Shown in pieces: positions 14,609 to 26,784 of a stretch of 64,000 nucleotides of DNA (positions within the stretch are counted from its first letter, which is position 1; each line of letters starts with the position of its first letter). A program made the position numbers and the translations under genes. Below the pieces are notes generated by a model. It saw only the letters and a program-made list of their open reading frames with translations, did no database searches and had not been told where the DNA came from. Location: contig JASMDX010000049.1 of the NCBI GenBank assembly GCA_030752605.1, positions 57,726 through 121,725 of the forward strand, in the 5' to 3' direction. Source of the DNA: Alphaproteobacteria bacterium. Its GTDB lineage: Bacteria > Pseudomonadota > Alphaproteobacteria > GCA-2731375.

Positions 14609-15430
14609 TTACATAAATGGACTGGGATCGGACAAATGATGCGCCGTCAGCTCTGAGGTCAAATAGTCAAAGGCATCATCGATACTGTCGGCGCGGTGAA
14701 ACAGATTCAGATCCTCTTCGTTGATGGTACCGAAATCCACCAGCGCGTCAAAATCCACCACCCGGTCCCAGAATTCCTTGCCGTACAGCACAATGGGTAC
14801 TTTCTTGCGGATCTTGCTGGTCTGCATCAGGGTCATGATCTCGAACAATTCGTCCAGGGTACCGACGCCGCCGGGCATGGCAATGATCGCCTTGGAAAGA
14901 TAGGCGAACCAGAATTTACGGATAAAGAAGTAATGGAATTCAAAGGCCAGGGCGCGGGTCACGAACGGATTGGCGAACTGCTCGAACGGCAGCGAGATAT
15001 TCAGACCGATGTTCAGTCCCTTGGCTTCCGAGGCGCCTCGGCTGGCTGCCTCCATGATACCGGGACCACCGCCCGTGCAGATCACGAAGCGTTTGTCGTT
15101 TCGATCCAGGTTCTTTGACCAATTTGTCAGACGGGCAGAAAGTTCGCGGGCTTCTTCGTAATAGCGGGACATTTTCACCGCTTTTTCCGCCTTAGCCAGA
15201 TCACCTGCCGCGCCGGCAGCCTTGGCCGTATCAAGCGCTTTGCCCGCGGCTTCAGCTGATTTAATGCGGGCAGAGCCGAAAATCACGATGGTGTCACGCA
15301 CCTGCGCCTGGCGGAAACGCTCCTCGGGCTCCATATATTCGGCCATGATACGCAAGGGGCGGGCCGAACGGCCATTCAGGAAATCTTCGTCACGATAGGC
15401 CTTTACCGGATGAAACGGTTTGTCGATCAT
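14609..15430 (-). CDS. LOG-family (TIGR00730) Rossmann-fold nucleotide-binding protein / putative nucleotide 5'-monophosphate phosphoribohydrolase
   Basis: TGGGPGIMEAASRGA and PGGVGTLDELFE motifs. 273 aa. Confidence 0.8.
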   Translation of the reverse strand: MIDKPFHPVKAYRDEDFLNGRSARPLRIMAEYMEPEERFRQAQVRDTIVIFGSARIKSAEAAGKALDTAKAAGAAGDLAKAEKAVKMSRYYEEARELSARLTNWSKNLDRNDKRFVICTGGGPGIMEAASRGASEAKGLNIGLNISLPFEQFANPFVTRALAFEFHYFFIRKFWFAYLSKAIIAMPGGVGTLDELFEIMTLMQTSKIRKKVPIVLYGKEFWDRVVDFDALVDFGTINEEDLNLFHRADSIDDAFDYLTSELTAHHLSDPSPFM

Positions 15431-15592
15431 GCATATTCCCCCATGTTTACGCGGCCTTTACCCGATTTATCCTAATGTCCCAGTTCACGAACCCGCGGCG
15501 GCTGGCGCCGCTTCTATAGGAAATGTGAGAGCGATCACTGGCGAACAGCACTGAAACCACCAGATATTTAGCCAAGAGCTGGAGGGAACCGT

Positions 15593-16048
15593 ATGTCGCA
15601 TCTGACCTATGAACAAGAAGCTTCGAGCCGTCAATCTCAGATAATTGCCGCAAACATCGGCGGGCCGATCATTTCGAGCGAATTGTCCAGGTACCTGGTT
15701 GTCAGCACCGTGGCATTGGCGGCGGACGTGGGTTTTTTGTACACTCTGTCCGCAGGTCTTGGGGCTCACTACCTGTTTGCCAATCCCATTGCTTTTACCC
15801 TTGGCGCCCTGGTGGCCTATTTCGGCTCCGTTCATTGGGCTTTTCGTGGCCGCAGGTTGTCCAATACGGGCCTGGAATTGGCCATTTTCGTGGCTATCGG
15901 CGTTGGCGGTCTGGCCGTCAACGAAAGCATGATGTGGCTCGGCATCGAGTTTGCGGCACTATCGCTGCTATTTGCCAAGACGGTGGCTGCCGTGACATCC
16001 TTCGCCTTTAACTTCATCATGCGCAAATTAGTCCTGTTCTCCATCTGA
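15593..16048 (+). CDS. GtrA-family membrane protein (polysaccharide-synthesis/flippase accessory)
   Basis: 151 aa with four predicted TM helices and a GtrA-like hydrophobic profile. It ends 9 nt before the next gene. Confidence 0.7.
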
Positions 16049-16056
16049 GACCCGAC

Positions 16057-17646
16057 ATGACTGAAAAACAGACGGCGATCATCATCGGCGGCGGCCCCGC
16101 CGGCCTGACCACGGCGCTAGAATTGCTGGAGCGCACGAATATCAAGCCCATCGTTTACGAGGGCTCGGACAATGTAGGCGGGATTGCACGCACCTATCTG
16201 CACGCGGGCAACCGTATCGATATTGGCGGGCATCGTTTCTTTTCCAAATCCGACCGGGTCATGAACTGGTGGTCGAGGATCCTACCCCTGCAGGGCCGCG
16301 AGGAAGAGAAATCCGCATCTATCAATTTGAATTTTCAAAATAATTCCCGCTGGCTGGAGATGCCCAGCGATGGCCCAAACCCGGATCAGGTGGATGACGT
16401 CATGCTGGTCAGGGCGCGCAAATCACGCATCCTATGGAATGGCAAGCTGTTTGATTATCCGCTGTCGCTGAATATGAAAACCTTGCGCAAGATGGGTTTG
16501 GGCACCACCATGTTGGGCGGTTTCAGCTTTCTGCGTAGCCAGATCGCGCCCATCCGACCCGAAGCGTCCCTGGAAGATTTTTTCATCAACCGGTTTGGCC
16601 GCCGCCTCTACCAAACTTTCTTCAAGGATTACACAGAAAAGGTCTGGGGCGTGCCATGTGACAAGATTTCTTCCGAATGGGGCGCGCAGCGCGTTAAGGG
16701 TTTGTCCTTGCTTGGCATTGTCATACATGCCCTGGGCGCAGTTTTTCGCAGCAAGAGCGATCTGGTGCAAAAGGAAGTCGAAACCTCGTTGATCGAAAAG
16801 TTTCTCTATCCCAAACACGGTCCAGGCCAGATGTGGGAGCGGGTGACCGAGATGATCCGCGAGCGCGGTGGCGAAGTTCACATGAACTGCAAGGTCACCG
16901 GCCTACGCCACGAAAACGGCCAGGTTACCAGCGCTACCATGATGAACGGCACCGGCACGCCCGAGGCCGTGGCAGGCGATTACTACTTCTCCACCACCGA
17001 TGTGCGGCAATTGATGGGGGCAATCAAGCCGTCCCCGCCAAGCACCGTCCTCGAGGTCTCGGATGGCCTGATTTACCGGGATTTCATCACTGTGGGCCTG
17101 TTGCTGGAGCGGTTGAAGCTGGGCGGTGACGCCACCGGGCAGGATATTGGCGAAAAGATGTCCGATAACTGGATCTACGTTCAGGAAACCGGCGTCAAGG
17201 TGGGCCGGTTGCAGTTTTTCAATAACTGGAGCCCCTATCTGGTCGCCAATCCCGATCATGTCTGGATTGGTCTGGAGTATTTCTGTGACGAGGGCGACGA
17301 TTTGTGGCGCATGGATAACAACGCCCTGGCCGCCTTCGCAATTCAGGAATTGCAGAAAATCAATGTCATCGAACCCGATGCGGTGCTGGATTATGTGGTG
17401 ATCCGAGTGCCAAAAACCTATCCGGCATATTTCGGCAGCTACGACCGATTCGCTGAGGTTCGCGACTTTACCGACGGTTTGGAGAATCTTTTTCTGTTGG
17501 GCCGCAATGGCATGCACCGCTATAACAACATGGATCATTCCATGCTGACTGCCATGGTAGCGGTGGATAACATTATTGCCGGCAAGCGCGATAAATCGAA
17601 TATCTGGTCTGTCAACACCGAAGCCGAATATCATGAGGAGAAATAA
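16057..17646 (+). CDS. NAD(P)/FAD-dependent oxidoreductase (UDP-galactopyranose-mutase / amine-oxidase-like Rossmann family)
   Basis: [16 protein letters not shown] dinucleotide-binding motif at the N-terminus. 529 aa. Confidence 0.8.
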
Positions 17647-17823
17647 CTGATCCTTCAGCTTCGTTGATGCGAGATAGATGCCGCGTGCCTTAATACTGAT
17701 TTTATCGATCCTTGCCTTGCCGCCTGCCCGATGGTGGATGGGTGGCCGTCGGGACGGCGCGATTTTCCGAGTTGAACTATTCGACGGCGACATGCGCCTG
17801 GTCCAGGCGCAAAAGCTGGCGGC

Positions 17824-19629
17824 ATGGCGTCCCGACCAGGTGCGGTCGTGAGCCTGCAGCGTCTGTTACTGTTGGCAGTAGTCCCAGCCCTGATGTTGGT
17901 TGGCGTACATATTTTATTGCAATTTTTGGCCGATTGGTTCGCACTTGATGGGCGCTTTATCGGCCCAGATGCCTATATGCGGGTGCTCCGCGTGGGGGAT
18001 CTTGCTTCGGGCGGGAGCTGGTATGAACCGGTAGCCGAACGTTCCAACGCACCCTATGGCGAAATTCTGCACTGGACCCGGCCACTAGACCTGTTGTTGT
18101 TGCTGGGTGGTATCCTGGGCGCGCCTTTACTGGGCTTCGATGGCGCCCTATTCGCCTGGGCGACTGTGTTCGGCCCGGTGCTTCATATTTTCACCCTCGT
18201 CGTGCTGCTGTGGGCCTGCCATCCGCTGTTGAATCAAAAAGGTCTGATGCTGCTAGGCCTGTTGTTCACAGTACAGTTTTTTGTCAGTTTTCAGTTTGCG
18301 GTGGGACGACCGGATCATCATGGGCTTAATATTCTATTTTTCATCTGGCAAATGGGCTTTGCCTTCCGTCTCTCGGCCGTAAAATGCCTGAAAAATTTAC
18401 CTCTTTTTGCAGCCCTGCCGGCCGCGCTCGCGCTCTGGATTAGTATTGAGGGCGCGGTGGGCACGGCCATGATCTTGACAGCGTTGTGCACCGCGTGGAT
18501 CATCCATGGCGGCGTCTATTTGCACCGGATGCGTTTGTTTCTCGTTAGCCTGAGTGTTGGTCTGATACTGGTATTGGTGGCGGAACGGCTGCCTAGTGAT
18601 CTGCTGACGGTAGAGTTCGATCGCCTATCGGTGGTGCATATCGCTTTGTTCGCGATATTGACCTTGGCTGCCCTGTGCATGCCCAGGATGGCGCGTCTGG
18701 GGAACCGTCTAAGCCTCGCGGTCGCCGCCGGCGTTCTGACCCTCACCGTCTTGGGGCTGTGGGTACCGGATTTCTTCTCTGGCCCCATGGCTGCCATGGA
18801 CCCACTCGTCTACGAGATTTGGTTCCGCAATAACGCCGAGGTCAGTCCGACGCTGGAACTCGACGATATGCGCCGAACCGGGCCAAAGGCCCTGGCCCAT
18901 CTCGGCCTGGTCATCTACGCGGTGCCGATACTGGTGGTTCTGTTCTTTCATTATCAAGGCGAACGCCGCCGCAATTATGCAATTTTGTCTGTTTTCCTCC
19001 TCGCTGGAACGGCCCTGGCCCTGCGCGAGGCACGCTGGATGGGCTATCCCCAAATCCTGTGCCTGCCCCCTTGCATTGTGTTGCTGCAGGTTCTGTTCGC
19101 ACGCAATGCCGGCCCCGGTCTGGGACGTACCGCGGTGCGCGTAGGCGCGGTTATCGTGCTTGCCACCGGGCCGTTGATCGGTGGCGGGCTGCTGCGCCAT
19201 GCCATGCCCGTACCGAAACAGGAGAAATCTTGTGGACTTTCAGAGATGGCGCTGTTTCTGGGGGTGAACTATGAACACCGCCCGCAAACATTATTAAACT
19301 TCATCTATTACGGGCCGGAATTGCTCTACCGGACACACCATTTCGTGATCGCCACGCCGTATCACCGCAACACCGACGGCATCGTTGATACCATAAAATT
19401 CCTTCGCTCCACCGACGAGTTAGAGGCAATATCCCTGATTGAGGAACGGCATATCGATCTGGTGTTGATCTGCCCCTCAGATCCGGAGGCTGATAATTAT
19501 CGCCAGACCGGCGATACCCCGACCTTATTCATGCGATTAGAATCTGATCAGCCACCACCCTGGCTCACGATGGTCCCGTTGCCCGCCGAACTGGGCCAGA
19601 AATTCAAATTGTTCCAGACCCAACGGTAG
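17824..19629 (+). CDS. Large polytopic membrane protein, putative GT-C-type glycosyltransferase
   Basis: About 10-12 hydrophobic helices over some 450 aa, followed by a soluble C-terminal domain of about 150 aa. The start is uncertain. The context (GtrA + FAD oxidoreductase) suggests lipid-linked glycan modification. Confidence 0.5.
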   Translation: MASRPGAVVSLQRLLLLAVVPALMLVGVHILLQFLADWFALDGRFIGPDAYMRVLRVGDLASGGSWYEPVAERSNAPYGEILHWTRPLDLLLLLGGILGAPLLGFDGALFAWATVFGPVLHIFTLVVLLWACHPLLNQKGLMLLGLLFTVQFFVSFQFAVGRPDHHGLNILFFIWQMGFAFRLSAVKCLKNLPLFAALPAALALWISIEGAVGTAMILTALCTAWIIHGGVYLHRMRLFLVSLSVGLILVLVAERLPSDLLTVEFDRLSVVHIALFAILTLAALCMPRMARLGNRLSLAVAAGVLTLTVLGLWVPDFFSGPMAAMDPLVYEIWFRNNAEVSPTLELDDMRRTGPKALAHLGLVIYAVPILVVLFFHYQGERRRNYAILSVFLLAGTALALREARWMGYPQILCLPPCIVLLQVLFARNAGPGLGRTAVRVGAVIVLATGPLIGGGLLRHAMPVPKQEKSCGLSEMALFLGVNYEHRPQTLLNFIYYGPELLYRTHHFVIATPYHRNTDGIVDTIKFLRSTDELEAISLIEERHIDLVLICPSDPEADNYRQTGDTPTLFMRLESDQPPPWLTMVPLPAELGQKFKLFQTQR

Positions 19630-23368: not shown

Positions 23369-24838
23369 ATGCCCACTCTAAAACCTAATCCAGATACCGT
23401 TGCGCACCAGAAAAGTCGGTGCGATGACAAGCATCCACAACAGGAAATTCCGTCACTGGACCGTCTGTTGCGCGCGCCTGAATTGCAACAATTGCAAGCA
23501 CGGGCGGGCCGTCAATTGGTGCTGGAGGAGGCCCGCGCCGAGCTGACCCAACTGCGCCAGCGGTTGAGCGGCACCAACGCCAATAGTACAGAAGAGACCA
23601 GCCTGGACCATCTGGCGGCCCAGATTGAGGCCCGCGTGGGGGCGGCTCTACGGATGTCCTTGCGGCCCGTATTCAATCTAACGGGCACCGTTCTGCATAC
23701 CAATCTGGGTCGCGCGCCGCTGGCGGAAGAGGCGATCGAAGCCATGGCAAAGGCAGCGCGTGGTGCCGTCAATGTGGAATTTGACCTCGCCAAAGGCCGG
23801 CGCGGCGACCGGGATGATCATGTGGAGGACTGGCTGTGCCGCCTGACCGGGGCAGAGGCCGCGACCGTGGTCAACAACAACGCAGCTGCCGTCCTGTTGC
23901 TGCTCAACACCCTGGCTAACCGCAGGGAGGTGCCTGTTTCACGCGGCGAATTGATCGAAATTGGCGGCGCCTTTCGAATTCCGAATATTATGCGCCGGGC
24001 GGGTTGCCGCCTGGTCGAAGTTGGCACCACGAACCGCACCCATTTGCGTGATTTCACCGAAGCCCTGACCTCGCGCACCGGCTGTTTGATGAAGGTTCAT
24101 ACCTCAAACTACATCGTGCAGGGCTTCACGGCGGAGGTCAGCGACGAAGATCTCGCCGGCCTGGCTCACGAAAATGACCTGCCCTATATGGTCGATTTAG
24201 GCGCCGGCGCGCTGATCGACATGGCGGCCCTGGGCCTGCCATACGAAACCACGGTCAGCGAAACCCTGGCAAAGGGTGCCGATTTGGTTAGCTTTTCCGG
24301 AGACAAGCTTTTGGGCGGGCCACAGGCCGGCCTAATCGCCGGACGCGCGGATTTGATCGCCAAGATCAAGAAAAACCCCATGAAACGGGCCCTTCGGGTG
24401 GATAAAGTAACCATGGCGGCCCTAGCCGCGACCCTGCGCCTGTATGCCCAACCTGACACCCTGCGGGCCAAACTGCCAACCTTGCGCTTATTGAGCCGGC
24501 CCGTGGCCGAAATCCAGGCCATGGCGGAGCGGATCGCGCCTGCGTTGCGGCTAACCTTGGGCGATGGCTTCCAAGTCACGATCACGCCGAGCAAGGGACA
24601 AATCGGCAGCGGTTCGTTGCCAGTTGAAAGCTTGCAAAGCGTGGCCCTGGCGTTGCGGCCCTGCACCACGAAGGGCAGCGGTGCTGCCTTGAAACGGTTG
24701 GCAGCGGCGTTTCGCACCCTGCCCCGACCGGTCCTGGGCCGGATTACAGATGACGCCTTGCATTTCGATCTTCGCTGCCTGGAGGATGGCGGGGACGAGG
24801 CGGCCTGGTTGGCGCAAATAGCGGATTTAAGGCCATGA
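23369..24838 (+). CDS. selA: L-seryl-tRNA(Sec) selenium transferase (selenocysteine synthase)
   Basis: SelA-specific length and the PLP-lysine motif FSGDKLLGGPQAG. It overlaps selB by 4 nt. Confidence 0.9.
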   Translation: MPTLKPNPDTVAHQKSRCDDKHPQQEIPSLDRLLRAPELQQLQARAGRQLVLEEARAELTQLRQRLSGTNANSTEETSLDHLAAQIEARVGAALRMSLRPVFNLTGTVLHTNLGRAPLAEEAIEAMAKAARGAVNVEFDLAKGRRGDRDDHVEDWLCRLTGAEAATVVNNNAAAVLLLLNTLANRREVPVSRGELIEIGGAFRIPNIMRRAGCRLVEVGTTNRTHLRDFTEALTSRTGCLMKVHTSNYIVQGFTAEVSDEDLAGLAHENDLPYMVDLGAGALIDMAALGLPYETTVSETLAKGADLVSFSGDKLLGGPQAGLIAGRADLIAKIKKNPMKRALRVDKVTMAALAATLRLYAQPDTLRAKLPTLRLLSRPVAEIQAMAERIAPALRLTLGDGFQVTITPSKGQIGSGSLPVESLQSVALALRPCTTKGSGAALKRLAAAFRTLPRPVLGRITDDALHFDLRCLEDGGDEAAWLAQIADLRP

Positions 24839-26784
24839 TCATCGCCACCGCCGGCCATGTTGATCATGGCAAGACCACTTTGGTGCGAGCTCTAACGGGG
24901 GTCGATACGGATCGTCTGCCGGAAGAGAAAAAACGCGGCCTGACCATCGATATCGGCTTTGCCTATCACGAAATCGATAGCGGGACGGACCATAAGGTGG
25001 TCATGGGCTTTGTCGATGTGCCGGGCCACGACCGCTTTATCAAAAACATGCTGGCGGGCGTCGCCACGATAGATTTCGTCCTGCTGGTAGTCGCCGCTGA
25101 CGATGGCGTGATGCCTCAGACGGAAGAGCATTTGGCCATCCTTGGTCTGTTGGGCATCCAGCAAGGCGCCGTGGCCATTACCAAAATTGATCGGACGACG
25201 CCCGAGCGCGTGGCTCAGGTTGAGGCCGAGGTTGCCGCCTTGCTGACGCCGACGCCCTTGGCAGGCGTACCCACGTTCTCGGTTTCAGGCGAGCTTGGCA
25301 CCGGTATGGATGCGTTGCGCCAGCATTTGGAAGCGGCCGCCCGCAACCATGCCGACCGCGCGGTGAACGGTCAGTTTCGCCTCTCTATCGACCGCGCCTT
25401 CACGGTTTCCGGCGCCGGCCTGATCGTCACAGGGGCGGTGTTTTCCGGTCAGGTTGCGGTCGGCGACCGTCTGATCCTGGCGGCCCGGGATAGAGCCGAG
25501 CCGATCGAGGCGCGGGTGCGCGGCCTGCGCGCCTTGGACCGTGAGGCCGAGTTGGGCCGGGCCGGGCAACGTTGCGCCATCAATATCGCAGGTGGCGAAC
25601 TGCATCAATCGCTTGTCAGCCGGGGTGATTGGCTATTGTCAGAAGCGATTTACGCGCCGGTGCACAAGTTCGATGCCCGGATCCGGGTGCTGAACAGTGA
25701 AAGCCGGCCATTGGGCCATTGGACGCCAGTGCATCTGCATCTAGCCGCCGCTGATATCACCGGACGCATCGCGGTTTTGGGCGAACGGCGCATTGCGCCC
25801 GGTGAAGATGCCCTGGCACAACTGGTATTGGATAGCCCAATAGGCGCCCTGTTCGGGGATCATTTCGTTTTGCGCGATCAATCCGCCCAACGCACCATCG
25901 CGGGCGGGATCGTCATTGATCCGTTCCCTCCCCGGCGCGGCCGTGCCCAGCCGGCGCGCCTAGCGATGTTGCGGGCCATGGAGGCGGAAGCGTCGGCCGA
26001 AGCCCTGGCGGCCATGGTTGCGGCCGCGGAAAATGGCGTCAATCTGCACCAATTCGTACAAACCCGCAATCTGACCCAGGCGGAAGCAGAACATCTGCGG
26101 CAGATTGACGGGCAGGTCCTACTGGCCGCCAATGACGATGACTTGGTGCTATCCCTTGAGCACTGGCGTCGTATCAAACAAGGGATCCTTGATACCCTGG
26201 CCACCTGGCACAAGAAACAACCCGAGGCCGTGGGCCCCAACGATAATGCCCTGCGCGCGGCCATGACATCGCCGCCCAGTCCCATTCTGCTGGCGGCTTC
26301 AATCGCGCATCTGATCGACGGGCGGACGATTATCCGCGACGGTATCTCGTTGCGCCTGCCCAGCCATGCACCGCGTCCCTCGGACGCGGATCTGGAATTA
26401 TGGAAACAGGTTTCGCTAATCCTGGAAGAAGGCGGCATTCGCCCGCCCAGAGTGCGCGAGGTGGCGGAGGAATTGAAGATAGATCCTGCCCGCCTGGAAG
26501 CTTTCCTAAAACGCTGCGCCCGCCAGGGCCGCCTGATGGCCGTGGCGCCGAACAGATTTTTCCCGCCCGCCGCGGTCTGGCGATTGGCGGCGGTGGTTGA
26601 AAGGTTAAGCGCGGCAGTGGGCGAGGAAGGTTTCACCGCCGCCGCCTTCAAGAATGACACCGGTATTGGCCGCAACGTGGCAATCGAGGTGCTGGAATTC
26701 TTCGACACCGCCGGCTTGACCCAGCGCCAGGGCAACACCCGGCGACTGCGCCGCCCGGCAGCGGAAGTCTTTGGCGACGCCTGA
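24835..26784 (+). CDS. selB: Selenocysteine-specific translation elongation factor
   Basis: EF-Tu-like GTPase motifs ([20 protein letters not shown]), followed by the long SelB C-terminal winged-helix extension. 649 aa. Confidence 0.9.

Follow-up and report, generated by a model that had tools for sequence, protein, structure and literature searches.

A GtrA protein, a UDP-galactopyranose-mutase-like flavoenzyme and an STT3/AglB-like GT-C protein as a candidate extracytoplasmic glycosylation module

Results

A locus of three consecutive genes

The 64,000-nucleotide stretch of DNA analyzed here, called the window throughout, comes from a member of the Alphaproteobacteria (assembly GCA_030752605.1, contig JASMDX010000049.1, positions 57,726 to 121,725 of the forward strand). 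It carries three consecutive open reading frames (ORFs), listed below, for a small membrane protein of the GtrA family, a flavoenzyme that resembles UDP-galactopyranose mutase (UGM), and a large membrane protein of an unannotated family that is predicted to be a GT-C glycosyltransferase. A first-pass annotation, made from the letters of the DNA, had claimed three ORFs at 15593-19629 and raised the idea of a lipid-linked glycan modification module. All three were found there on the plus strand, and our results support the idea with two refinements, namely that the GT-C protein is oligosaccharyltransferase-like (OST-like) and that the flavoenzyme is mutase-like.

15593-16048, + strand: ORF1, GtrA-family small membrane protein (151 aa), by Pfam PF04138
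16057-17646, + strand: ORF2, UDP-galactopyranose-mutase-like flavoenzyme (529 aa), by NCBIfam NF005546 (PRK07208.1-2)
17824-19629, + strand: ORF3, predicted STT3/AglB-like GT-C glycosyltransferase (601 aa), from a family without annotation, by AlphaFold2 model and family profile

The earlier assignment of ORF1 to the GtrA family is borne out by a match to Pfam model PF04138 (GtrA_DPMS_TM) with E=1.5e-17 and 64.3 bits against a cutoff of 26.1, in which residues 33-149 span the whole model (1-117 of 117). Source databases label its homologs "GtrA family protein" or "putative flippase GtrA". Whether GtrA proteins translocate or present polyprenyl-phosphate sugars is debated even for characterized members. 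ORF1 and ORF2 are adjacent as reported, with a real gap of 8 nt; the 9 nt given before is the difference between the coordinates.

Fold and conserved residues of ORF3

ORF3 had been described as a polytopic protein with about 11 transmembrane helices, a C-terminal soluble domain and no assignable motif. The last statement agrees with database searches, in which ORF3 has no Pfam or NCBIfam match even at E<=0.1, the Pfam STT3 model (PF02516) included; one distant homolog (P0072) has a precomputed match to PF02516. A single-sequence search with ORF3 against PDB sequences gave chance-level matches only, and a family profile was required; the profile matches the C-terminal domain of AglB-S1 with E=2e-8 and human STT3A with E=7e-5. 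Homologs found among 5.8 billion proteins number 101, nearly all of them unnamed and from metagenome-assembled genomes (MAGs). An alignment of 70 sequences (A1) was used for the AlphaFold2 model and for the column counts given below.

The model has a mean predicted local distance difference test score (pLDDT) of 95.7 and a predicted template modeling score (pTM) of 0.94. It keeps the C-terminal soluble domain, an alpha/beta domain from about residue 470, and raises the number of membrane helices to about 13. In fold comparison it scores highest with Archaeoglobus fulgidus AglB (23.2, 507 residues aligned), human STT3B (22.4) and DPY19 (20.1), and lower with PglB (17.6), ALG12 (16.4), ArnT (15.8), PMTs (10.6-14.0) and arabinofuranosyltransferases (7-12). 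A GT-C fold had been suggested before, of the ArnT-like or PMT-like kind; the GT-C part stands, and the ArnT and PMT types were rejected because neither is the closest fold or a family-model match. The features of ORF3 that bear on its chemistry are as follows.

17962-17970, + strand: G47-P48-D49, acidic motif of the first external loop; D49 in 70/70, position 47 D in 45/70 and G in 25/70 (D-P-D in most relatives)
18304-18321, + strand: G161-R-P-D164-H165-H166, second acidic motif, aligned to SYDNEG of STT3A; D164 in 70/70, H165 in 70/70, H166 in 66/70
18838-18840, + strand: E339 of external loop 5, aligned to the Glu of STT3A SVSE (SVSE/TIXE motif); 68/70
19033-19035, + strand: R404, aligned to a conserved Arg of STT3A; 70/70
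19231-19626, + strand: predicted periplasmic domain at the C-terminus, alpha/beta and of the AglB type; the degenerate WWDYG position within it reads F493-I-Y-Y-G497 (19300-19314)

D49 was equated with the loop-1 acidic residue of OSTs by loop position only, and R404 presumably binds lipid phosphate, a role we take from the OST literature. On the strength of its model, ORF3 belongs with the GT-C enzymes of the STT3/AglB/DPY19 structural class, and by analogy with these enzymes it appears to retain the metal and catalytic center of OSTs (D49, D164-x-H166, E339) together with the lipid-phosphate Arg. Of the traits by which OSTs are known, ORF3 has the GT-C membrane fold, the C-terminal mixed alpha/beta domain, the acidic residues, the loop-5 Glu and the Arg, and the one that neither ORF3 nor its family has is the WWDYG motif. 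This motif binds the +2 Ser/Thr of the N-glycosylation sequon. At its position Gly alone is conserved in the family, with D in third place in 24/70 sequences; because the motif is not conserved, ORF3 would lack a reader of the +2 Ser/Thr.

ORF3 differs in several further respects from A. fulgidus AglB-S1/S2 (short AglB) and eukaryotic STT3 (CAZy GT66): its family is bacterial, its identity to them is about 12-13%, no genes for assembly of lipid-linked oligosaccharides lie near it, and its partners imply a monophosphate-linked single sugar; the degenerate WWDYG, in which Gly is kept, and the failure to match Pfam STT3 also set it apart. DPY19 (PDB 7zlg), a C-mannosyltransferase, is without a match to the AglB-type C-terminal domain, unlike ORF3. 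The Trp residues that this eukaryotic enzyme modifies lie in WxxW motifs, and the candidate acceptors of ORF3 discussed below show no motif of that type.

The family is large. Profile searches of representatives of clusters at 50% identity return 9,112 members at E<=1e-3 and 3,617 at E<=1e-30, distributed over Alphaproteobacteria, Nitrospirota, Planctomycetota, Gemmatimonadota, Bacillota and others.

ORF2 and UDP-galactopyranose mutase

The first-pass annotation had called ORF2 a Rossmann-type FAD oxidoreductase. The FAD-binding Rossmann N-terminus is present, and in place of a generic oxidoreductase the rest of the protein indicates a UGM-like enzyme. Pfam returns Amino_oxidase only, and NF005546, matched at 792 bits against a cutoff of 418, is a model named merely "hypothetical protein". 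The best matches among PDB sequences are UGMs, with that of Trypanosoma cruzi (4dsg) at the top with E=3.4e-15, and outside the FAD-binding N-terminus UGMs are the only significant matches. For the AlphaFold2 model of ORF2 (pLDDT 85.3), the top 35 Foldseek matches are all UGMs (E=5e-29, TM-scores 0.71/0.79); protoporphyrinogen oxidases and phytoene desaturase rank after them (E=1e-23 to 1e-20). Residue conservation was counted over 46-51 family members from many phyla, and the following features, together with Y455, are tied to invariant positions.

16225-16233, + strand: G57-G58-H59, counterpart of the UGM "histidine loop", by HMMER alignment to GGH of T. cruzi and Aspergillus fumigatus UGM; invariant
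16618-16647, + strand: helix F188-F-K-D-Y-T-E-K-V-W197, by HMMER alignment to UGM FMRPYNFKVW; F188, F189, Y192, T193, K195 and W197 invariant
16690-16692, + strand: R212, aligned to a substrate-binding Arg of UGM; invariant
17206-17208, + strand: R384, aligned to the other substrate-binding Arg of UGM; invariant
17500-17541, + strand: segment G482-S495, aligned to the UGM C-terminal active-site segment GRFGxWRY..GNQDHS; R483, Y489, N490, N491, D493, H494 and S495 invariant

The equivalent of the F188-W197 helix in UGM is one that we take to function in nucleotide binding. The FAD-binding fold, the GGH loop, the two substrate Arg residues and the Tyr/Asn active-site residues of UGMs are all found in ORF2, which is a member of a highly conserved UGM-like family with the mutase hallmark residues invariant. 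ORF2 nevertheless falls below the cutoff of the curated Glf equivalog model TIGR00031 (35.6 bits against 303.75), for which reason we call it UGM-like and not Glf; it also has no Pfam GLF domain (PF03275). Compared with Glf of the eukaryotic type (PDB 4dsg, 3ute), it shares the fold and every aligned catalytic and substrate-binding residue, while identity is only about 20% and the gene is coupled genetically to that of a GtrA membrane protein. As a separate observation, the ORF2 family is nearer to eukaryotic UGMs (E=3e-15) than to classical bacterial Glf (E=2e-7 or weaker), both by sequence and by structure, a point of possible relevance to how the eukaryotic enzymes arose.

The mutase-like family has at least 8,000 matches at E below 1e-20, and its members are 56-60% identical across Alphaproteobacteria, Planctomycetes and Gammaproteobacteria. 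The copy in Pirellula staleyi is already labeled UDP-galactopyranose mutase by its source; other homologs are named "protoporphyrinogen oxidase" or "NAD(P)/FAD-dependent oxidoreductase". Such names, together with the lone Amino_oxidase match and the closeness of protoporphyrinogen oxidases and phytoene desaturase behind the UGMs in the fold search, could be taken to mean that ORF2 is an oxidoreductase of the amine-oxidase/phytoene-desaturase/protoporphyrinogen-oxidase superfamily, acting on the lipid carrier (for instance by saturating polyprenol) or on some other substrate that GtrA presents; a lipid substrate would be in keeping with the tight coupling of ORF2 to a membrane protein that binds lipid. 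We judge this quite improbable in view of the restriction of similarity beyond the FAD-binding N-terminus to UGMs, the invariance of the residues of UGM chemistry (GGH loop, both Arg residues, RY..N.DHS segment), and scores far under the cutoffs of every curated desaturase and protoporphyrinogen oxidase model. The specific assignment as protoporphyrinogen oxidase was rejected. A DprE1-like role was also rejected, DprE1 being of a different flavoenzyme superfamily.

Gene neighborhoods of the ORF3 family

A profile from a 27-sequence alignment was used to scan one genome per GTDB species and found 161 relatives of ORF3, for 80 of which the loci were fetched. The ORFs of these 80 loci were clustered, hidden Markov models were built from the clusters, and neighbors were recounted. 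A mutase-like gene adjoins the ORF3 homolog in 24/80 loci, and the full trio occurs in 19. Sister MAGs assigned to Rhodospirillaceae or Alphaproteobacteria (L001-L016, L025) share the order LOG (on the minus strand), GtrA, mutase-like, GT-C, TcuA-like. The trio recurs in three Syntrophomonadaceae MAGs (L024, L046, L071), a Bacillota MAG (L033) and a Gemmatimonadota MAG (L040), so that the GtrA neighbor, whose lack of conservation would have counted against the module, is conserved across phyla. The mutase-like gene and GT-C occur together without GtrA in L019, L020, L023, L085 and L087. In a cultured species, Marinicauda salina, the gene for a member of the ORF3 family (613 aa) adjoins GtrA and a mutase-like gene in divergent orientation.

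Where GtrA and mutase-like genes occur together (22 fetched loci), GtrA is always directly upstream in the same orientation, at a distance of -10 to +26 nt, and the two genes overlap by 4 nt in 11 of the 22. The fixed order and the 4-nt overlaps suggest that the pair is co-translated and works together. No fusion of the two was seen among 39 GtrA homologs or 120 listed mutase-like homologs. The pair also occurs without a GT-C of the ORF3 type, in Gemmobacter aquarius, in Pirellula staleyi and in Thiorhodococcus, in the last of which the pair stands alone. In Pirellula staleyi (CP001848; L082 7480-12223) it follows the flagellar regulatory genes flhA-flhF-fleN-fliA and is followed by a gene for an 829-aa protein with an N-terminal polytopic domain, containing an FVFDD loop, and C-terminal tetratricopeptide repeats. 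To us this protein looks like a different GT-C, of a TMTC/PMT-like kind, and it may use the same donor branch.

Two further contexts of the mutase-like gene are of note in their own right. At L087 8589-11528 the next gene encodes a GT-C family member, and a PAP2_3 phosphatase-like gene comes after it; at L086 15070-15590 the mutase-like gene lies inside a polysaccharide locus that also contains rml genes and genes for GT2 enzymes and a YfhO-type GT-C. From these contexts, the mutase-like family appears to serve more than one pathway.

An alternative partner is a family 2 glycosyltransferase (GT2) with C-terminal membrane helices, which adjoins GT-C in 22/80 loci. Its nearest solved relatives are ArnC (E=1e-9) and dolichol-phosphate mannose synthase (E=2e-5), both of which are polyprenyl-phosphate glycosyltransferases. 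Locus L038, with the order GT-C, GT2, GtrA, amounts to a classical three-component set, and L041 is similar. GT2 and the mutase-like gene are found together beside GT-C in one locus, where 6.6 would be expected (hypergeometric P=0.0013, uncorrected for phylogeny). Together with the GtrA match of ORF1, the complete sets of L038 and L041 and the Pirellula staleyi pair with its different polytopic protein, the GT2 partner and this near-exclusivity of GT2 and mutase support a polyprenyl-monophosphate monosaccharide as the donor of the family.

Association with Tad/Flp pili

Tad pili are major organelles of adhesion and colonization. At least two tad genes (of cpaA, cpaB, cpaC, cpaE and cpaF) lie within 9 kb of GT-C in 23/80 loci, which come from Kiloniellaceae, Magnetovibrio, Thalassospiraceae, Planctomycetota (L042, L050, L069), Nitrospirales (L068) and a delta-proteobacterial MAG (L061), and Flp pilin genes with the motif G/ATAIEYGL stand beside GT-C in 17 loci. 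A Pelagibius chromosome (L074) has the typical order, GT-C, GT2, flp pilin, cpaA, cpaB, cpaC and so on. In the Bacillota MAG (L033) the order is GT-C, GtrA, mutase-like, an flp-like gene (…KVQQG followed directly by QALIEY…), tadA, tadB, and cpaA is near in L023 and L046. The GtrA/mutase-like pair of Gemmobacter aquarius (CP028918; L081 1-9602) closes a complete tad operon on its 3' side (secretin, TadE-like, CpaE-like, CpaF, TadB, TadC), with no homolog of the 601-aa GT-C within 8 kb of the pair. In a neighbor-joining tree of the GT-C family the GtrA/mutase, GT2 and Tad contexts are interleaved, none being confined to one clade. It is implausible that GT-C was placed beside tad operons so often by chance, although the sample is phylogenetically structured.

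The acceptor is suggested, by analogy, to be a protein, which is plausible because the nearest folds to ORF3 are all protein glycosyltransferases. The gene neighborhoods of relatives, which are the one lead to the identity of the acceptor, single out the Flp pilin as the best candidate.

On a rival reading, ORF3 would be a true oligosaccharyltransferase that, like PglB and AglB, moves a preassembled oligosaccharide in one piece from undecaprenyl pyrophosphate onto Asn. It shares their fold and the catalytic set of Asp, Asp, Glu and Arg, and some of the adjoining Flp pilins have C-terminal N-x-S/T sites (NMT, NAT, NAS, NGS). Many adjoining pilins have no sequon, however; the family does not conserve the WWD residues by which OSTs recognize the +2 Ser/Thr, and the partners (GtrA, the ArnC/DPMS-like GT2, the sugar mutase) make monophosphate-linked single sugars and do not resemble assembly of the pgl or agl type. 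We hold a true OST to be very improbable.

Some details of individual Tad loci are recorded here. The Flp-like pilin at L033 4102-4302 has a predicted exposed C-terminal segment (…GMQANNNIGLVIPYFP) with no Ser or Thr and with a run of Asn; being free of Ser and Thr, it misfits simple Ser/Thr O-glycosylation. At L074 6624-9640 (minus strand), a GT-C of the GT87 family (426 aa, PF09594 E=3e-35) precedes the GT-C-GT2-flp-cpa cluster, and beside it is a gene for an additional polytopic protein (534 aa) with no Pfam match. Several extracytoplasmic glycosyltransferases may act at this Tad locus.

Flanking genes and a remnant paralog

The flanks of the trio belong to unrelated metabolism, with a divergent LOG/TIGR00730 gene upstream and a gene for a TcuA-like flavoprotein downstream; genes for a CoA-transferase, an enolase-superfamily protein, an HIBADH-like protein, an enoyl-CoA hydratase, SelA and SelB are also nearby. 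Since its neighbors are unrelated metabolic genes, the trio forms a small island. A scan for consensus promoters and terminators found fewer sites than shuffled sequence gave and was uninformative. One might conclude from a trio set amid unrelated catabolic genes, with no promoter or terminator pattern to define an operon, that the adjacency is fortuitous and that the three genes serve unrelated processes. The order is repeated in four or more phyla, and stop codons overlap start codons there; the partner types (GtrA, GT2, GT-C) fit known pathway logic, which leaves fortuity with hardly any probability at all.

The gap of 178 nt between ORF2 and ORF3 is not plain spacer and contains one further feature, recognized by blastn against L002 and by translation.

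17678-17851, + strand: remnant (57 codons) of a deleted tandem GT-C paralog

The gap is the stump of a GT-C paralog and preserves about its first 47 codons. By blastn, window positions 15402-17818 correspond to L002 6017-8468 and positions 17817-19495 to L002 9994-11672, so that the window has a clean deletion of about 1,525 bp relative to L002; L001, L002 and further sister MAGs keep the region. Translation of the remnant gives MPRALILILSILALPPARWWMGGRRDGAIFRVELFDGDMRLVQAQKL, which matches the N-terminus (about the first 47 residues) of the L002 paralog. Tandem GT-C paralogs, with mutual identity of 29-36%, occur in most sister MAGs, and L005 and L007 have a single copy too.

Elsewhere in the window, at 23369-26784, the genes for SelA (selenocysteine synthase) and SelB (the selenocysteine-specific elongation factor) overlap by 4 nt. 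ARAGORN finds no tRNA in the 64-kb window, and hence no selenocysteine tRNA.

Discussion

The folds, the conserved catalytic residues, the sizes of both families and the gene linkages are observations; from them we infer a furanose donor, a lipid carrier step and a protein (Flp) acceptor. Overall we consider it reasonably probable that the three genes are a module for glycosylation outside the cytoplasm, with polyprenyl phosphate as the carrier of the sugar. At the inner face of the membrane, the mutase-like enzyme would change the ring of a nucleotide sugar, or else of a sugar-phosphate donor, from pyranose to furanose, so that the donor sugar is probably a furanose. The sugar would be transferred onto polyprenyl phosphate, and GtrA would bind or flip the resulting lipid. 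The glycosyltransferase that loads the carrier may be encoded elsewhere or, more speculatively, may be replaced by the GtrA/mutase pair. ORF3, an inverting enzyme on this view, would then pass this one sugar to an acceptor in the periplasm, which the fold class suggests is a protein, with Flp pilin as the best candidate.

Known systems share parts of this logic. Shigella and Salmonella GtrA-GtrB-Gtr(type) and Gram-positive GtcA/CsbB/YfhO likewise combine GtrA, a lipid-phosphate sugar and an extracytoplasmic GT-C. They differ in that the window and 23 other loci have a UGM-like flavoenzyme in place of GT2, and in that ORF3 is a GT-C of a different structural family. Mycobacterial Rv3789 (GtrA)-DprE1-DprE2-AftA and Pseudomonas aeruginosa TfpW provide a comparison for the combination of GtrA, flavoenzyme and GT-C, with the flavoenzyme leading to a lipid-linked furanose donor; the terminal enzyme in the window is instead predicted to be OST-like, nearest to short archaeal AglBs and DPY19, and its donor-side enzyme is UGM-like and neither a GT2 nor DprE1. 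TfpW is reportedly a GT-C that places a furanose on the type IV pilin of Pseudomonas aeruginosa (arabinosylation).

The known three-component systems modify glycans, and the same may be asked of this one. In such a Gtr-like side-chain modification, ORF3 would add a furanose branch to O-antigen, exopolysaccharide or a periplasmic glycan and not to a protein. The shared GtrA and lipid-phosphate logic speaks for it, and the kinship of the ORF3 fold with protein glycosyltransferases speaks for a protein; we regard a glycan acceptor as unlikely, though with an appreciable chance of being right.

Several findings weigh against the polyprenyl-phosphate glycosylation module with a protein acceptor. 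GtrA and GT-C are present at the locus, and no GtrB-like GT2, the third component of Gtr systems, is encoded within the 64-kb window to load the lipid carrier. The mutase-like family is also found without GtrA in other glycan loci, 21/80 loci have no partner gene (many of those contigs are short), and the genes around the trio are catabolic. As for the pilus, the 64-kb window has no tad or flp gene, a search for ORFs with the Flp motif included, and the Flp pilins beside GT-C have no consistent N-x-S/T sequon or Ser/Thr pattern, for which reason no linkage type is claimed. The one Tad pilus structure consulted, from Caulobacter, has no extra density (PMC10710030); Caulobacter was not checked for an enzyme of the ORF3 type. 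The searchable literature, with most subscription journals outside the search, yielded nothing on the ORF3 GT-C family, the GtrA/UGM-like pair or a Tad-linked glycosyltransferase, and no experimental test of any member of the GT-C or mutase-like families.

The glycosylation module can be extended into a bolder proposal, to which we assign a small probability. ORF3 would represent a large unrecognized bacterial branch of STT3/AglB that glycosylates Flp pilin with a single sugar and without a classical sequon; the GtrA/mutase pair would be a donor route independent of GT2, in which a flavin-sugar adduct is resolved by polyprenyl phosphate held by GtrA to give a lipid-linked furanose; and the whole would be a relic of transfer between domains. 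The last element comes from two reports taken together, one proposing that Tad pili arose from archaeal Epd-like pili (PMC6668835), the other that the Epd major pilin of Methanococcus is N-glycosylated via AglB (PMC3875500).

The ORF3 family is a separate OST-related branch with thousands of members and no family model, apparently wired to monosaccharide lipid-phosphate donors. Bacterial enzymes with the N-type OST fold are, to our knowledge, known almost only as PglB, in Campylobacterota and some Desulfobacterota. The "hypothetical" flavoenzymes of PRK07208 would gain a testable function as furanose-forming mutases, and their coupling to GtrA offers a concrete handle on what GtrA proteins do. 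If the pilus link is true, a glycosylation system would be dedicated to Tad/Flp pili, for which we found no such machinery described.

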